DNA of 64,000 bases, from the NCBI GenBank assembly GCA_001001345.1, contig LCKI01000001.1, positions 339 to 64,338 on the forward strand. Reading direction: 5' to 3'. This DNA comes from Parcubacteria group bacterium GW2011_GWC1_45_14 (GTDB lineage Bacteria; Patescibacteriota; Minisyncoccia; Moranbacterales; GWC2-37-73). Shown here piece after piece: positions 1,461 to 52,497 of this stretch. Numbering within the stretch: position 1 is the first letter of the stretch; every line of letters starts with the position of its first letter. The notes beneath the pieces are model-generated. The model was not told the origin of the DNA, did not search any database, and was given only the letters and a program-made list of their open reading frames with translations. The translations under genes were made by a program, and so were the position numbers.

Positions 1461-2231
1461 TTAGCGGCATTTGAGATACATTAAAAACTCCTTTTTTCCT
1501 TTTCCTCCCAGAATAGGAGAGTCCGTGATTCCTATGATTTCAAACCCTAAATCTTTGGAGAGATTTTTTATTTTTTCGATGACTTCTTCGTGGAGATTTT
1601 CTTTGTTCACTATACCTTTTTTGATATGCTTTTTTCCTACTTCGAATTGCGGTTTGATGAGCGTGACGATTTCCCCTTTGGTTGAAATCAGTTCAGCGGC
1701 TTTCGGTAGGATATGCGAGAGGGAAATGAATGAGACGTCGATGCAGATGAAATCCAAAAGCTCGGAAAAATTTTCCTTGGATAGGTTTTTGATATGGGTG
1801 TTTTCCATATTCACGACCCTCTCGTCGCTCCTCAGTTTTTCCGCCAATTGTCCGCTACCCACGTCGACGGAGTAAACTTTCTCAGCCTTGTTTTCCAGTA
1901 GAACCTGGGCGAATCCTCCGGTACATGCTCCAAAGTCGGCGCATATTTTATTTTTGACGTCGATGTTCCAATGCTCCAATGCATGTTCCAGTTTCAAGCC
2001 GGCGCGCGAAACCCAGGGAATGTCCTGTTTAATTATTTCAATTTTTGAATTCTCATCCACTTGCTGGGTGGGTTTTGTCGCGATTTTGCCATTCACCCTG
2101 TTAAATTGCTCCGCACCGCCTTCAGCGGATTTAACAGGGTAAATCAAAACACCCCCGTCTTTAATGAGGTTTTTGGCGCGCTCCCTTGATTGCGCCAAGC
2201 CATTTTTTACCAGTAATGCATCCAGTCTCAT
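1461..2231 (-). CDS. tlyA: TlyA-family rRNA 2'-O-methyltransferase (S4 domain + FtsJ-like MTase)
   Basis: S4-like N-terminus (RLDALLVKNGLAQSRERAKNLI), FtsJ motif DFGACTGGF; contains in-frame repeat insertion at 2091-2143. Confidence 0.8.
   Translation of the reverse strand: MRLDALLVKNGLAQSRERAKNLIKDGGVLIYPVKSAEGGAEQFNRVNGKIATKPTQQVDENSKIEIIKQDIPWVSRAGLKLEHALEHWNIDVKNKICADFGACTGGFAQVLLENKAEKVYSVDVGSGQLAEKLRSDERVVNMENTHIKNLSKENFSELLDFICIDVSFISLSHILPKAAELISTKGEIVTLIKPQFEVGKKHIKKGIVNKENLHEEVIEKIKNLSKDLGFEIIGITDSPILGGKGKKEFLMYLKCR
2091..2143. repeat. Palindromic nested-hairpin element copy A, inserted in-frame inside tlyA (encodes YPVKSAEGGAEQFNRVN)
   Basis: ttcaccctgttaaat ... atttaacagggt inverted arms with internal hairpin, same family as copies at 11359, 14846, 14921, 42951, 56444, 62888. 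Confidence 0.6.
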
Positions 2232-2285: not shown

Positions 2286-4043
2286 TTAGAGGGATTTGTT
2301 GGAAATTTCCTTTGTCATTTTTTCCACGAAATCTTCAAGTGAAAGAGTTTCTTGTATTTTTTCTCCGCGCTTTCTGATGGTGACGGTTTTGGATTCCTGT
2401 TCTTTTTCTCCGATAACTATCATGTAAGGAGTCTTCTGTTTTTCCGCTTGGGAAATCCGCTTGCCAAGCGATTCCGATTCAAGACTCATTTCCACGCGGA
2501 CATCTTTTTCCAAAAGTTTTCCTTCAACCTTTTTTGCATATCCTTCGAATTTCTCGCTAACAGGTATGATCGCGACCTGGACAGGGGAGAGCCAGAGCGG
2601 GAAGGCGCCAGCAAAATGTTCAATCAGAAGCATCAGGAATCTTTCATATGATCCAAGGATGGCACGGTGGACCATGACGGGATTGATTTCTTTTCCGGTA
2701 TTGTCCGTGTATACGAGATCGAACCTTTTCGGCGTGGCGAAATCCAGCTGTACGGTCGGTATCTGGATTTCCCTTCCCATGGAATCTTTGAACATGAAAT
2801 CGAGCTTGGGTCCGTAGAGAGCGGCTTCACCTTCGCGTTTTTGCGCATCAAGTCCCATCTCATCGGAAATTTCCTGAAGCATCTGTTCGCACTTGTCCCA
2901 ATCCTGGGGGTCACCGATATATTTTTCAGGATGGGCATAGTCTCGCACTGAGAGGGATACCCAATGGTTTCCCCACATTCCGAGCGAGCTATAGAAATCT
3001 TTGATTATCTCAACCATGTTTTTCATTTCCTGTTTCACTTGGTCGACGGTACAGAACGAATGTCCGTCTTCGACGGTAATCGCGATCACGCGATTGAGTC
3101 CTCCGATTTCACCAGGCTTCTCATCGCGGTACTGTTTTTCCGATTCCATATATCTTATTGGAAGATCGCGATATGATCTTGGTCGGGAAGCGAAAATCTG
3201 GGTTTGGTGTGGGCACTGCACCGGCTTCATTACGTAATTCTGTTTGTAGTGCGATTTGACCTGGAAAAGTTCGTCGCCGAATTTCTGGGCATGTCCGGAT
3301 TTCTCATAAAGGTCTATTTTGGCCAGATGGGGAGTGGAAACTTTTTGGAATCCGTAACCCCTGCAAACCTTTTCGATGTGTTTTTGTAGTTCCTCTTTTA
3401 TGGTAGTTCCTCTCGGAGTGAAGAGCGGTAATCCCGGTCCGACGAGATCGGAGAAGGCGAAGAGGTCCAATTCCTTGCCAAGTTTTCGGTGGTCCCTTTT
3501 GGCGGCTTCTTCCAACTGCTGGAGGTATTCTTTGAGTTTCTTTTTATTTTCAAAAACTACTCCATAAATCCTTTGGAGCTGGATATTGTTCTCATCTCCT
3601 TTCCAATAGGCTCCGGAAATCCTGGTGAGCTTGAGCGCCTGCGGGTCTATTTTTCCGGTCGAGTCGATGTGTGGTCCTGAGCAGAGGTCGATGAAATCAC
3701 CGGATTTATAAATCGAGACATTCTCGTTGCCTTGCGTGATAAGGTCGTTGATGATTTCAACCTTGTAACTTTGTCCGATCCCTTCGAATTTTTCCTTAGC
3801 TTCCTGCGCCGAAAGTTCGGCCCGTTCGAATTCGTGGTTTTCCTTGATGATCCTTTGCATCTTTTCTTCGAGCAGGGGAAGATCTTCAGGGATGAGGGTT
3901 CGGGGGAGTTCGAAGTCATAATAGAATCCGTTTTCGATCGCCGGTCCCATGGCGAATTTGGCTTCGGGAAACATCTCAAGAACGGCAGCTGCTAATACGT
4001 GCGCCGAAGAATGCCTTAAGATTTCCAATTTGTCTTGCTCCAT
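2286..4043 (-). CDS. thrS: Threonyl-tRNA synthetase, short form lacking N-terminal TGS domain
   Basis: starts just before HSSAHVLAAA editing-domain motif; class II aaRS catalytic and anticodon-binding regions. Confidence 0.9.
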   Translation of the reverse strand: MEQDKLEILRHSSAHVLAAAVLEMFPEAKFAMGPAIENGFYYDFELPRTLIPEDLPLLEEKMQRIIKENHEFERAELSAQEAKEKFEGIGQSYKVEIINDLITQGNENVSIYKSGDFIDLCSGPHIDSTGKIDPQALKLTRISGAYWKGDENNIQLQRIYGVVFENKKKLKEYLQQLEEAAKRDHRKLGKELDLFAFSDLVGPGLPLFTPRGTTIKEELQKHIEKVCRGYGFQKVSTPHLAKIDLYEKSGHAQKFGDELFQVKSHYKQNYVMKPVQCPHQTQIFASRPRSYRDLPIRYMESEKQYRDEKPGEIGGLNRVIAITVEDGHSFCTVDQVKQEMKNMVEIIKDFYSSLGMWGNHWVSLSVRDYAHPEKYIGDPQDWDKCEQMLQEISDEMGLDAQKREGEAALYGPKLDFMFKDSMGREIQIPTVQLDFATPKRFDLVYTDNTGKEINPVMVHRAILGSYERFLMLLIEHFAGAFPLWLSPVQVAIIPVSEKFEGYAKKVEGKLLEKDVRVEMSLESESLGKRISQAEKQKTPYMIVIGEKEQESKTVTIRKRGEKIQETLSLEDFVEKMTKEISNKSL

Positions 4044-14558: not shown

Positions 14559-14686
14559 GATTTATTTGGCCGTGCCGCGTGATCATGAGTGAACGTTCTT
14601 CTGCGTACCCACGTAAAATAATTTCTGTTGAAATTATCACGTGGCTCGCGAAAATCATTCACAAATGAACTCATGATTTTACGCGG

Positions 14687-14845: not shown

Positions 14846-14910
14846 TTTTACCCTGTTAAATAATCCTGCTTGGGCGGGATTGCCGCTTAACGGCATTTAA
14901 CAGGGTGAAC
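14846..14910. repeat. Palindromic nested-hairpin element copy C1
   Basis: ccctgttaaataat ... atttaacagggtgaac. Confidence 0.6.
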
Positions 14911-14920
14911 AAAAATAAAT

Positions 14921-14990
14921 ACAAAAATTCACCCCTGTTAAATTGCGCTTGTAGCGCACCGGCCTTGCCGGATTTAACGGGGCAAGAAAA
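14921..14990. repeat. Palindromic nested-hairpin element copy C2 (tandem with C1)
   Basis: acaaaaattcacccctgttaaatt ... gatttaacggggcaagaaaa. Confidence 0.6.
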
Positions 14991-42950: not shown

Positions 42951-43025
42951 ACAAAAATTCACCCAGTTAAATAATTTTGCTTTTGGCAAAATTTCCGCAA
43001 AGCGGAATTTAACGGGGCAAGAAAG
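42951..43025. repeat. Palindromic nested-hairpin element copy D
   Basis: acaaaaattcacccagttaaataat ... aatttaacggggcaagaaag. Confidence 0.6.
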
Positions 43026-50526: not shown

Positions 50527-50598
50527 GCCACCCTAGCTCAATGGTAGAGCTACTGTTTTGTAAACAGTGGGTTATCGGTTCAAATCCGGTGGGTGGCT
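50527..50598 (+). tRNA. tRNA-Thr(UGU)
   Basis: cloverleaf: acceptor GCCACCC/GGGTGGC, anticodon loop TTTGTAA, T-loop TTCAAAT. Confidence 0.7.
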
Positions 50599-50605
50599 CA
50601 GGAGT

Positions 50606-50641
50606 AGTATTTAGTATTTAGTATTTAGTATTTAGTATTTT
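50606..50641. repeat. 7-bp tandem repeat (gtattta)x4.5 followed by a hairpin aatactgtatacaagatacagtatt
   Basis: direct inspection. Confidence 0.7.
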
Positions 50642-50682: not shown

Positions 50683-50765
50683 GGGTAGTTGGCGGAGTGG
50701 TCAATCGCAGCTGACTGTAAATCAGCCGACTTCGGTCTTCGGGGGTTCGAATCCCTCACTGCCCA
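50683..50765 (+). tRNA. tRNA-Tyr(GUA) with long variable arm
   Basis: acceptor GGGTAGT/ACTGCCC, anticodon loop CTGTAAA, T-loop GGTTCGAATCC. Confidence 0.8.
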
Positions 50766-50862
50766 CCGCGTAAAATCATGAGCTTTGCGAGTGATTTAAG
50801 CGCCCCGTGATAATTTGCGAAAGCGAATTATTTTACGGGGATATACCATTAAAAATAAGCTC

Positions 50863-51156
50863 ATGATCACGCGGCACGGCCGTGAGGGATTCTACTATGT
50901 ATATGTCATAGAAAATGACCATGATTTGAGTTGGTATATTGGATTTACGATTAATTTTGGAAAAAGATTGCAGGAGCACAACTCCGGTAAATCACCGTAT
51001 ACTTCCAGGAAACAGGGAAAACGGAGGGTTATATATGCGGAGTGTTATCTTTCCAAAAAAGATGCGTTGTCAAGGGAGGAATTCTTGAAATCCGGTTCTG
51101 GTAGAAGATTTTTAAAGAACCAATTAAAGAACTACTTGCACGCGACGCCGTTGTAG
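50863..51156 (+). CDS. GIY-YIG nuclease domain protein (YhbQ/UPF0213-like), stop overlaps 5' end of tRNA-Thr(GGU)
   Basis: FYYVYVIEN...WYIGFTINFGKRLQEHNSG. Confidence 0.6.
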   Translation: MITRHGREGFYYVYVIENDHDLSWYIGFTINFGKRLQEHNSGKSPYTSRKQGKRRVIYAECYLSKKDALSREEFLKSGSGRRFLKNQLKNYLHATPL

Positions 51157-51415
51157 CTCAGTCGGTAGAGCGTATCCATGGTAAAATTTTGCCCACCGCA
51201 TGGGAAACCAAGCGGTGAATCCCGAATAACGGTTAAAGGCCTCGCATAAGGTTCAGACCGTGGCGTCAGCAAGGCGCCCGAACGACTGACAAGGGGAGCT
51301 GCGTCCGAAAGGATATGCTCAATATACAGTCTAATCCTCTACGATATATGTTTGTTGGAAAAATAGAGGTGTTAAATGAAGGATAAGGTCCGCGGTTCGA
51401 TCCCGCGCAACGGCT
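51147..51415 (+). tRNA. tRNA-Thr(GGU) interrupted after anticodon by ~196-nt group I intron
   Basis: 5' exon GCCGTTGTAGCTCAGTCGGTAGAGCGTATCCATGGT, 3' exon AAGGATAAGGTCCGCGGTTCGATCCCGCGCAACGGCT form a complete cloverleaf when joined. Confidence 0.6.
51183..51378 (+). ncRNA. Group I self-splicing intron (Azoarcus tRNA-Ile-like IC3 architecture)
   Basis: follows exon U, ends with G; CCGCATGGGAAACCAAGCGG (P3/P4-like), GGTTCAGACCG and ATATACAGTCTAA (P7 strands CAGAC/GTCTA). Confidence 0.55.
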
Positions 51416-51424
51416 CAGGGAAAA

Positions 51425-51457
51425 AGTAATCAGTAATCAGTAATCAGTAATCAGTAA
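51425..51457. repeat. 7-bp tandem repeat (gtaatca)x4.5 following tRNA-Thr(GGU)
   Basis: direct inspection. Confidence 0.7.
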
Positions 51458-51505
51458 GCGTTAAACAATAACGAATAACCGATAATTGATAATAAATTTA
51501 TTTTT

Positions 51506-51667
51506 ATGGGACACATCAAGGACACGATGGCGAAGATGCGATGCTCCGAATGCAAGGAGATCAACTATTATTCTTCACGCAACAAGAAGAAAGTGAAGGA
51601 GAAACTTGAGATGAACAAGTATTGCAAGAGATGCCAGAAGCATACGCTTCACAAGGAAATGAAATAA
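51506..51667 (+). CDS. rpmG: 50S ribosomal protein L33
   Basis: [44 protein letters not shown]; below ORF-track cut-off. Confidence 0.8.
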
Positions 51668-51733
51668 CCTGTCAGTCGCGACTGACGGGTTAAACCCGTT
51701 GCTCGCGAGCGACGGGTTAGCTCCTTCTGACTT

Positions 51734-51982
51734 ATGCATTACGTCTATCTTCTTAAATTGGAAAACACCAAAAAGAATTTTTATATTGGTTGTACTTCTG
51801 ATTTGAAGAGGCGTTTACGTGAGCATCAGTCTGGGAATACTCAAACGACAAAAGGAAAAAATCCCAAACTTATCTATTATGAAGCATTTTCCGATAAGGA
51901 TTTGGCTCAAAAAAGAGAAGAGGGATTGAAAACAAGCGGATCCGTTTATAATGCGCTGATAAGAAGGTTGGGATTAAGATAA
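51734..51982 (+). CDS. Second GIY-YIG nuclease domain protein, flanked by 20-nt direct repeats
   Basis: HYVYLLKLEN...FYIGCTSDLKRRLREHQSG. Confidence 0.6.
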   Translation: MHYVYLLKLENTKKNFYIGCTSDLKRRLREHQSGNTQTTKGKNPKLIYYEAFSDKDLAQKREEGLKTSGSVYNALIRRLGLR

Positions 51983-51986
51983 GATT

Positions 51987-52055
51987 GCGGGCATCGTATA
52001 GTGGTAATACGGCGGTCTCACCAGTCAGTCGCGACTGACGGGTGTCTCCAAAACC
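51987..52055 (+). pseudogene. Pseudo tRNA-Trp: 5' half (to anticodon loop) carrying 26-nt palindromic insertion with ctc duplication, no T-arm/3' half
   Basis: identical to 52088-52120 of intact tRNA-Trp then accagtcagtcgcgactgacgggtgt insert. Confidence 0.45.
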
Positions 52056-52087: not shown

Positions 52088-52158
52088 GCGGGCATCGTAT
52101 AGTGGTAATACGGCGGTCTCCAAAACCGTTAACGTGGGTTCGATTCCTACTGCCCGTG
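52088..52158 (+). tRNA. tRNA-Trp(CCA)
   Basis: anticodon loop CTCCAAA, T-loop GGGTTCGATTCC, acceptor GCGGGCA/TGCCCGT. Confidence 0.75.
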
Positions 52159-52162
52159 CAAT

Positions 52163-52210
52163 AAAATAAAACAGGTACTTATTCAAATAAGCACCTGTTT
52201 TATTTTATTT
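52163..52210 (+). terminator. Strong rho-independent terminator after tRNA-Trp
   Basis: aaaacaggtacttatt-caa-ataagcacctgtttt plus T-run. Confidence 0.55.
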
Positions 52211-52335
52211 GTATTGATGCGTAGGAATCGAAGGGTATTTCAAAAAGGCAAACTGCTTTGCGTTTTTGAAAACCCAGGCTTTGAAGGAGGAAATGAGGCA
52301 TGTGCTTGCAAAGCACGCCGAATGACGGGTGAAAA

Positions 52336-52355
52336 GGATTCCTACTGCCCGTGCA
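52336..52355. repeat. 20-nt direct repeat of tRNA-Trp 3' end (gattcctactgcccgtgcaa), att-site-like
   Basis: identical to 52141-52160. Confidence 0.45.
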
Positions 52356-52497
52356 AATTAATGAAAAAACGCTTATTTAGGGCGTTTTTTTGTATCTTCT
52401 ACTTCTATAATATTTTTTAATATTGACAATTTTTTTAAAACCTTGTATATTTTCATGAAAGTTTTGTTCCTTAAACAATTTCGAGAGGAGAAGCGCC

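Follow-up and report, generated by a model that had tools for sequence, protein, structure and literature searches.

Within a stretch of 64,000 nucleotides (nt) from Parcubacteria group bacterium GW2011_GWC1_45_14 (contig LCKI01000001.1; the whole stretch is hereafter called the window), a cluster of transfer RNA (tRNA) genes harbours two short open reading frames (ORFs) for GIY-YIG nucleases, ORF1 (50863-51156) and ORF2 (51734-51982), and our preferred interpretation, which we hold to be probably correct, is that each is the single gene of a compact, nuclease-only mobile cassette targeting tRNA genes. Such a cassette would probably measure about 0.35-0.5 kb, combine a nuclease of UPF0213/Slx1 type with cognate hairpins, sit at the boundaries of tRNA or transfer-messenger RNA (tmRNA) genes, and occur in the Candidate Phyla Radiation (CPR) and a few other phyla. 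The loci described below have a recurrent architecture, covarying hairpins, exact junctions with tRNA genes, a record of movement between sites, filled, empty and decayed alleles, and nuclease genes under purifying selection; moreover, each nuclease subfamily is paired with a hairpin family of its own. An earlier note on this DNA, which had read the two ORFs as parts of intron or mobile-element homing machinery and not as housekeeping genes, is thus borne out in part: their mobility is supported by site switching, by the filled, empty and decayed alleles and by tRNA duplications, whereas the link to an intron does not survive.

The two nucleases and their family

Both free-standing, GIY-YIG-only ORFs reported in the earlier note are real in their coordinates, catalytic residues and match to Pfam family PF01541, and both pass the profile check proposed there, with 52.9 bits for ORF1 (E 4.8e-14) and 52.1 bits for ORF2 (E 8.3e-14) against a cut-off of 22.6 bits. 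A Pfam search of the two proteins returned nothing else of substance and no DNA-binding domain. ORF1 encodes 97 amino acids (aa) on the forward strand from an ATG to a TAG stop at 51154-51156, with an alternative, longer version starting at a TTG at 50815, while ORF2 encodes 82 aa on the same strand and belongs to a subfamily found just upstream of tRNA-Trp genes. The proteins are 40% identical to each other and keep the six residues that are invariant in an alignment of 30 family sequences (Y5, Y17, G19, R27, H31 and E62 in ORF2 numbering). Database homologues include a Candidatus Moranbacteria protein with 100% identity to ORF1 and a metagenome protein with 99% identity to ORF2; family members in CPR genomes routinely carry the annotation 'GIY-YIG nuclease' or 'excinuclease ABC subunit C'.

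For both ORFs the closest sequence matches in the PDB are the UPF0213 proteins BH0048 and EF2693, followed by SLX1 (1zg2 at E-values of 3e-8 and 7e-6, next 1ywl, then SLX1), and no I-TevI or UvrC chain in the PDB matches either of them even at E<=10. The AlphaFold model of ORF2, with a mean predicted local distance difference test (pLDDT) score of 92, places 1zg2 (BH0048), Slx1 and HIGLE at the top of a Foldseek search, with I-TevI at rank 13 and UvrC at rank 16 or lower. By sequence and fold, both ORFs belong to the UPF0213/YhbQ-Slx1 branch and not to the I-TevI/Seg branch, so that the comparison of I-TevI-like with YhbQ-like proteins suggested in the earlier note falls on the UPF0213/Slx1 side. 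The NCBIfam search gave no usable family (the E-value for TIGR01453 was 0.0012, well short of its cut-off), and PADLOC and PHROGs gave weak generic GIY-YIG matches only (PHROG E-values of 9e-6 and 5e-4).

To our knowledge, UPF0213/YhbQ is a widespread family without an assigned function, and YhbQ and YazA are not known to be associated with tRNA genes, hairpin repeats or mobility. The UPF0213/YhbQ/YazA proteins (COG2827) and Slx1 resemble the ORFs studied here in domain, size and motifs (GIY, YIG, R, EH.SG, E), and Slx1 has been described as the founder of a family that includes YhbQ and YazA (PMC7017083). Slx1 nevertheless has a zinc-finger domain and requires Slx4 (PMC7017083), whereas the CPR proteins stand alone. 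Wherever synonymous change can be measured, the ratio of nonsynonymous to synonymous substitution rates (dN/dS) lies at 0.05-0.15 for the two ORFs, and saturation of synonymous sites is frequent; together this indicates that the proteins are functional and old at their sites.

ORF1-type cassettes dock on tRNA ends with a covarying hairpin unit

Our ORF1-type set consists of 80 loci from 185,579 species genomes, selected by protein patterns only (L-numbers denote loci or contigs of relatives compared with the window). A tRNA or tmRNA gene on the same strand ends no more than 450 nt upstream of the ORF in 58 of these 80 loci, where chance alone would, by our estimate, give ~1% for a random gene at a density of about 45 tRNA genes per Mb. 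The docking genes are of 14 kinds, namely Met, Gln, Asp, Tyr, Arg, Leu, Asn, Phe, Gly, Ile, Glu, Ser, His and tmRNA, and most of the loci that seem to have no tRNA lie after a tmRNA (confirmed by Rfam in L025 and L089), after an intron-bearing tRNA missed by ARAGORN, or after a tRNA 3' fragment.

The DNA 3' of the tRNA opens with (G)CGTAAA or CGAAAA, continues as a variable perfect hairpin and ends in CACG(T/C/G)GG or CTCGTGG, which can be written as the consensus unit CCN-CGWAAA-[variable perfect hairpin]-CW'CGN'GG. This unit occurs in its strict form in 69/80 loci, starting at the tRNA end in 50, and its motifs are 10-25 times more frequent than background in the 200 nt upstream of the ORF while remaining at background elsewhere within +-2.5 kb of the 80 loci. 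In 52 forward and 41 inverted instances, N and N' covary (A-T 42, G-C 21, C-G 8), as do W and W' (T-A 66, A-T 11) and all six pairs of the upper stem. Paired cells amount to 83.5%, compared with 27-48% in slid controls, and changes on both sides of a pair were found in 257 cells versus 94 in shuffles, with 0/500 shuffles reaching the observed value.

The junction with the tRNA is exact to the base. A forward unit starts directly after the discriminator base, so that its first two bases are tRNA positions 74-75, and CC stands at these positions in 51/51 unit-adjacent tRNAs (ending in CCA in 35, CCG in 14 and CCC in 2) but only in 20/68 other tRNAs of the same loci, from which we conclude that CC(N) comes with the unit itself. 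The ORF1 cassette of the window docks on tRNA-Tyr(GUA) on the forward strand (50683-50767; ARAGORN, and Rfam tRNA at 57.5 bits), whose discriminator is A50765 and which shares C50766 and C50767 with the start of the outer hairpin unit. This outer unit (50766-50874, forward strand), identified by the strict scan for covarying units, DNA folding and family covariation, reads CCGCGTAAA-ATCATGAGC...GCTCATGAT-CACGCGG. Nested in its loop lies an inverted inner unit (50803-50840, reverse strand; unit scan and fold) that reads CCCCGTG-[hairpin]-TTTACGGGG on the forward strand, and DNA folding of the outer and inner pair gives z = -4.0.

The typical order of an ORF1-type locus is a forward unit, usually an inverted unit, a -10-like box and the ORF, with a TAnAAT box 7-12 nt before the ATG in many loci. 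The ATG of ORF1 (50863) lies within the 3' arm of the outer unit, and the conserved N-terminal 'MITRHG' is therefore explained as a DNA motif. The conserved DNA of the ORF1 cassette stops at about 51139 (...AACTACTTG), and the final codons and stop of ORF1 extend into the acceptor stem of the next gene, tRNA-Thr(GGU).

Could the hairpins instead act as RNA, forming a 3' trailer with a role in supplying or protecting the CCA end and in directing the 3' processing of the tRNA or tmRNA, with the ORF as a co-transcribed passenger? The unit does begin at tRNA position 74 and supply CC(N) where neighbouring tRNAs mostly have no encoded CCA, and its 5' arm pairs with a downstream motif. We nonetheless consider this very unlikely. 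An inverted unit is present in 37 loci, some units have no tRNA at all (for example window 14575-14686, L082 and L094), and the TAnAAT box close to the ATG suggests a separate promoter. The occurrence of units in both orientations, together with the rarity of G-T pairs (G-U at the RNA level), points to a palindrome that matters as DNA rather than as RNA. Furthermore, Rfam 15 has no family that matches the hairpin units, whether at E<=1 (window region) or at E<=0.1 (13 loci), the Rfam matches in those regions being tRNA, tmRNA and a group I intron only.

Strict units occur at only two places within the 64-kb window, and a strict scan of 50 shuffled windows gave 0 matches. The second place is an ORF-less, ORF1-type pair on the reverse strand (14575-14686, with a nested inverted unit at 14609-14644), which is followed by ATGATCACGCGGCACGGCC and a 'MITRHG' start before it reaches the 3' end of a murD-like gene that converges on it. 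With no tRNA nearby, this pair represents a solo or deleted cassette. The preceding ...GCAACC resembles the tail of a tRNA-Met 3' end.

Some further observations concern the hairpins themselves. Units stand in tandem in L080 (2254-2290), L056, L058, L061 and L074, and in L080 the new cassette comes after the ...GGTCA tail of an existing unit. The usual end of a unit, GGC-NNN-GCC-A, may imitate the acceptor end of a tRNA and could offer a new site for docking. A different family of hairpin repeats, GTTAAAT-[10-40 nt]-ATTTAAC, has four copies in the window (2100-2135, 14855-14901, 14937-14978 and 42966-43013; 0.02 expected), two of them just upstream of the solo pair at 14.6 kb.

Movement of ORF1-type cassettes between sites

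The clearest case of a change of site is L008, a cassette between tRNA-Lys and tRNA-Arg whose protein is 86-87% identical to those of L021 and L022 at the tRNA-Tyr site. It nests within the Tyr-site clade; identity to the copies in the window, L021, L022 and L008 drops to 61-67% in the deeper L023 and L024. The L008 hairpins are near-identical to those of the Tyr site, and the similarity has a sharp left boundary, running from the junction of ...ACC with GCGTAAA to ...AACTACTT, which corresponds to ~51139 in the window. The empty version of this site is found in L188 (flanking VanW protein 73% identical), where tRNA-Lys and tRNA-Arg are separated by a 13-nt spacer, while L186 carries a different non-coding insert at tRNA-Lys. 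Movement is also seen inside a single genome, in which L077 (after tRNA-Gln) and L080 (after a pre-existing unit by tRNA-Asn) encode proteins that are 91% identical, and their DNA identity starts exactly between CA and CGAAAA and fades just past the end of the ORF. More generally, only 17/56 cassettes share their tRNA species with their nearest relative. In 5/50 loci the ORF is followed, 8-62 nt on, by a copy of the final 16 nt of the docking tRNA (12-16/16 matching); four of these five copies match at >=14/16, a level reached by 4/729 control windows.

Two other descriptions were tried and rejected. One was co-conversion of the T arm, nearly identical in tRNA-Tyr and tRNA-Lys, between the two sites; the empty site in L188 has the same T arm except for one base, and the arm is therefore native to tRNA-Lys. 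A transposon-like layout (duplication, inverted repeat, ORF, inverted repeat, duplication) was seen in one locus, L038, and is not general, because the motifs are at background downstream of the ORF and the tRNA 3' copies are limited to ~10% of loci.

As side observations on the tRNA-Lys site, four independent assemblies of a close relative (L182-L185) all break inside tRNA-Lys at the spot of the L008 cassette, which is consistent with a repeat or polymorphism confusing the assembly; these contigs were left out of the comparison at this site. L186/L187 contain non-coding inserts after tRNA-Lys and tRNA-His (3335-3504 and 3669-3913) with 19-nt direct copies of the tRNA 3' end and a common motif ending in ...GAGCGAAGCGACGTGA, and a similar end precedes the hairpin unit in L066. 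These inserts may represent a second kind of small tRNA-targeting element.

ORF2-type cassettes and the tRNA-Trp site

The ORF2-type set, 80 further loci from a metagenome scan, is organised differently. In nearly all loci with a protein at least 55% identical, a tRNA-Trp gene begins 1-16 nt after the stop codon or overlaps it, and more distant members immediately precede tRNA-Ser, Glu or Gly or immediately follow tRNA-Gly or Trp. Many loci have a copy of tRNA-Trp nt 1-33 upstream of the ATG, matching in 22/22 of the first 22 nt in seven loci. This copy is followed by a 25-nt palindrome, ACC(C/T)GTCAGTCGCGACTGAC(G/A)GGTG or a GTCGCTCGCGAGCGAC variant, and then by TCTCCAAAACC; the block of pseudo-tRNA, palindrome and TCTCCAAAACC fits a strict pattern in 13/28 ORF2-type loci, and L123 and L124 have two palindromes in tandem with TCTC flanking each. 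Bordered by TCTC repeats, the conserved palindrome often interrupts the displaced tRNA copy within its anticodon loop. The resulting layout is pseudo-tRNA(1-34), palindrome, tRNA(31-43), ORF and intact tRNA.

In the window, rpmG (ribosomal protein L33; 51506-51667) is directly followed, from its stop codon onwards, by two palindromes on the forward strand (51667-51690, ACCTGTCAGTCGCGACTGACGGGT; 51694-51717, ACCCGTTGCTCGCGAGCGACGGGT), both variants of which are also found with ORF2-type genes of other lineages, and then by ORF2. Next come a pseudo-tRNA-Trp block (51987-52055, forward strand) and the intact tRNA-Trp(CCA) (52088-52159, forward strand), the docking tRNA of the ORF2 cassette. The block consists of tRNA-Trp nt 1-33 (51987-52019), the 25-nt palindrome ACCAGTCAGTCGCGACTGACGGGTG (52020-52044) and TCTCCAAAACC (52045-52055), a repeated piece of the anticodon loop and stem of tRNA-Trp. 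The rearrangement at tRNA-Trp that the earlier note had pointed out is therefore real, with a 5' copy at 51987-52019, the intact gene at 52088-52159 and a copy of the 3' end at 52337-52356. Elsewhere, the pseudo-tRNA block directly precedes the start codon of an ORF2-type gene, whereas in the window it follows ORF2 and has no ORF behind it. Together with the 8 nt 5' of the real tRNA-Trp (ATAAGTCT), which are similar to the end of ORF2 plus spacer (ATAAGATT), this suggests that the block at 51987-52055 is a second cassette from which the ORF has gone.

The slot between rpmG and tRNA-Trp in Moranbacteria is polymorphic. ORF2 fills it in the window, L014, L015 and L020, and L017 has the gene too; L022 (39-nt gap) and L023 have an empty slot, and in L021 (3120-3851) an unrelated ORF of about 700 nt takes its place. 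In L024, ORF2 has decayed to a 27-codon stump flanked by a 23-nt copy of the tRNA-Trp 5' end and the palindrome.

The displaced, attachment (att)-like copy of the tRNA-Trp 3' end (52337-52356, forward strand) points to a hot spot for integration, scarred by an element other than the ORF2 cassette that has since been lost. The copy lies 195 nt beyond the real tRNA-Trp, with terminator-like hairpins between the two (region 52160-52366), and in L012 and L013 a large serine recombinase gene overlaps the tRNA-Trp 3' end, outside the cassette. Both the copy and the recombinase gene, as well as the non-coding inserts of L186 at tRNA-Lys and tRNA-His with their 19-nt duplications of the tRNA 3' end, are what one would cite for the view that the ORFs are cargo or scars of larger, integrase-driven tRNA islands, in which the duplications are att sites and the nuclease takes no part in movement. 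This seems improbable to us: the great majority of the 160 loci have no integrase nearby; the segments common to different sites start and end with the cassette and hold only hairpins and a GIY-YIG ORF; the left junction falls after the discriminator base and not, as in a typical att site, inside the T loop; and each nuclease subfamily has its own hairpin family.

Another reading is that these are ordinary housekeeping genes of UPF0213/YhbQ type, active in DNA repair or in some other role, which happen to lie in tRNA clusters, for example for their shared strong promoters, next to regulatory or terminator hairpins, with nothing mobile about them. UPF0213 proteins are indeed the closest matches of both ORFs, dN/dS is low (0.05-0.15) with saturated synonymous sites, the synteny of ORF1 is kept across Moranbacteria and the genes are kept in very small genomes. 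On the other hand, near-identical cassettes with their hairpins are found at different tRNAs in close relatives and in one genome, empty and decayed alleles exist, the docking sites cover 14 kinds of RNA gene including tmRNA, and partial tRNA duplications flank the ORFs. Hairpin units in both orientations with few G-T pairs, and the presence of multiple copies in a genome (two in the window, plus a stump), also count against it, and we regard it as unlikely. Under mobile cassettes, the interpretation that we prefer, the best reading of the window is that ORF1 is an old, vertically kept insertion at tRNA-Tyr and ORF2 a dispensable one at tRNA-Trp, behind which the stump of a second insertion remains.

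The intron of tRNA-Thr(GGU)

As the earlier note had it, the stop of ORF1 lies within the first bases of an intron-bearing tRNA: exons 51147-51182 and 51379-51415 on the forward strand, once joined, fold as a perfect tRNA-Thr(GGU). The intron itself (196 nt, 51183-51378) is inserted at position 36/37 and holds no ORF, both nuclease ORFs being outside it. A U precedes the 5' splice site and the last intron base is G. The Rfam search of the 196-nt insert gave no group I match, even at E<=10, and Thr(GGU) 36/37 introns of Patescibacteria have been listed among divergent group I introns missed by Infernal (PMC13011429). Most tRNA introns are without endonuclease genes (PMC13011429).

The idea that the ORFs are active or remnant I-TevI-like homing endonucleases of this group I intron has in its favour that GIY-YIG domains occur in intron homing endonucleases, ORF1 abuts the intron-bearing tRNA, and weak matches to 'homing endonuclease' profiles exist (TIGR01453, E 0.0012 and below cut-off; PHROG, 9e-6 and 5e-4). 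The location of both ORFs outside the intron and the uncoupling of their presence from it nevertheless differ from what is required of intron-encoded homing of the I-TevI type. ORF1 occupies the same spot beside an intron-free tRNA-Thr(GGU) in L014 and L021-L024, and the order tRNA-Thr(UGU), tRNA-Tyr, ORF1, tRNA-Thr(GGU), rpmG is kept, with an uninterrupted tRNA-Thr(GGU), in relatives whose ORF1 is 53-82% identical. ORF2 docks on tRNA-Trp, an intron-free tRNA; neither ORF has a DNA-binding domain; and sequence and fold place both with UPF0213/Slx1. Because the ORFs are UPF0213-like and ORF1 is syntenic in intron-free relatives, the very combination that the earlier note had set against its own proposal, the intron hypothesis is refuted, and we give it hardly any credence. 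The split tRNA-Thr(GGU) is a neighbour of the ORF1 cassette and not part of it, and the intron is a recent gain or loss in this lineage, given that the close relatives L021-L024 are without it.

Other features of the locus

The overall gene order is a tetratricopeptide repeat (TPR) gene, tRNA-Thr(UGU) (50527-50599), tRNA-Tyr, ORF1, split tRNA-Thr(GGU), rpmG, ORF2, partial tRNA-Trp, tRNA-Trp and a radical SAM gene. Two runs of 7-nt tandem repeats were also noticed, (TAGTATT)n at 50605-50641, directly 3' of tRNA-Thr(UGU), and (AGTAATC)n at 51425-51459, directly 3' of the split tRNA-Thr(GGU).

A possible mechanism and its difficulties

How might such a small cassette move? The nuclease, if structure-selective like Slx1, may cut tRNA-gene DNA and/or its own hairpins, and host recombination repair could then copy the cassette into the broken tRNA gene, using short homology from conserved parts of the tRNA, for example its T arm or 5' half. 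The near-identical T arms of tRNA-Tyr and tRNA-Lys, for instance, could provide the homology for the switch from the Tyr to the Lys site. Repair of a break from a cassette template would explain both the partial tRNA duplications and the restored intact tRNA. We infer a break made by the nuclease because Slx1 is nearest by fold, because T4 SegB offers a precedent, the nearest one, and because one end of the partial tRNA duplications falls in the T loop (their start, in L045) or in the anticodon loop (their end, in the ORF2 type).

More speculatively, and with considerable doubt on our part, the cassettes could be a previously unrecognised minimal mobile element of about 0.4 kb, with an Slx1-like nuclease and no transposase, integrase or reverse transcriptase, whose movement is guided by DNA structure. 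The nuclease would then recognise folded tRNA-gene DNA (at the acceptor end, position 73/74, or at the anticodon loop) as well as its own hairpins that mimic a tRNA end, and the cassette would be copied or pasted at these landmarks. By supplying a CC(A) end or a new 5' half, the cassette would keep the tRNA functional.

Several observations weigh against our interpretation of the ORFs as genes of mobile cassettes. A catalytic domain of 82-97 aa without a DNA-binding domain would not be expected to achieve sequence specificity alone. The strong purifying selection and the long synteny of ORF1 at tRNA-Tyr are unusual for a purely selfish homing gene, and the retention of ORF1 would fit a host-beneficial or domesticated role. 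The hairpins are found almost only upstream of the ORF and not at both ends, the right boundary is fuzzy, and tRNA 3' duplications occur in only about 10% of ORF1-type loci. The tRNA genes of these genomes also collect other insertions, so some of the duplications may stem from unrelated integrases. Finally, there are almost no copies in viral contigs.

Distribution and relation to known systems

A search of 2.9 million viral contigs gave one partial match, and a phage origin was rejected on that account. The arrangement recurs in hundreds of ultra-small CPR bacteria, and some members with the same hairpin unit were found in genomes labelled Verrucomicrobia, Kiritimatiellae and Ignavibacteria. 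A literature search with thin coverage of subscription journals turned up no account of CPR bacteria in which GIY-YIG genes are linked to hairpins or to the ends of tRNA or tmRNA genes, an absence that is no proof, and a recent survey of Patescibacteria tRNA introns leaves GIY-YIG unmentioned. Free-standing, homing-type nuclease genes that target tRNA genes are already known as a kind; the mechanism has a substantial chance of being new.

The homing endonuclease SegB of phage T4 is much longer than the proteins studied here and has DNA-binding parts. Of the features that characterise the Seg type, a C-terminal DNA-binding region is absent from the 82- and 97-aa ORFs, while presence/absence polymorphism is found both for ORF2 (filled, empty and decayed) and at tRNA-Lys (filled in L008, empty in L188). 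SegB is a free-standing GIY-YIG enzyme encoded in a tRNA cluster, which recognises DNA of the T-psi-C stem-loop and drives its own inheritance (PMC2330249). The likeness to the cassettes lies in a GIY-YIG gene between tRNA genes, outside any intron and tied to generic tRNA features, with the cassettes spreading from one tRNA site to another. In contrast to the cassettes, which are cellular and almost absent from viral contigs, SegB is a phage enzyme with a 27-bp recognition site (PMC2330249); the cassettes further differ in their 82-97-aa proteins with a catalytic domain only, in belonging to the UPF0213/Slx1 branch, in their covarying hairpins and in the exact junction at tRNA position 73/74 or the tRNA 5' end.

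A second parallel is with the repetitive extragenic palindromes (REPs) of REP/REPIN-RAYT systems and with IS200/IS605, which likewise combine a small nuclease-type gene with imperfect palindromes in inverted pairs, an upper stem conserved in structure and not in sequence, and insertion at a short sequence after the stem. Those systems, however, use HUH/Y1 transposases and covalent intermediates, whereas the only ORF of the cassettes is a hydrolytic GIY-YIG nuclease; moreover, REPs are dispersed in many copies, whereas cassette units stand at two places in 64 kb and are at background in the +-2.5 kb flanks. Integrase-driven tRNA islands, in turn, share the docking on tRNA and tmRNA genes, the restored intact tRNA and, in some loci, the displaced partial tRNA copy. 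The cassettes differ from them in having no integrase, a size of 0.35-0.5 kb with one gene, and a junction at the discriminator base or anticodon loop instead of a T-loop att site. Such partial copies were seen after the ORF, as a 3'-end copy, in 5/50 ORF1-type loci and before it, as a 5'-half copy, in 13 or more of 28 ORF2-type loci, and are absent in the rest.

Subfamilies of UPF0213 that are locked to tRNA and tmRNA ends together with their own hairpins lead to a substrate hypothesis for this family, namely folded tRNA-gene DNA or the hairpins themselves. The cassettes are also a candidate for the smallest autonomous DNA mobile element based on a simple hydrolytic nuclease. At a practical level, they offer an explanation for pseudo-tRNA fragments, contig breaks and mis-annotations around the tRNA genes of CPR genomes, and more broadly they bear on how extremely reduced genomes tolerate or exploit selfish DNA at essential RNA genes.

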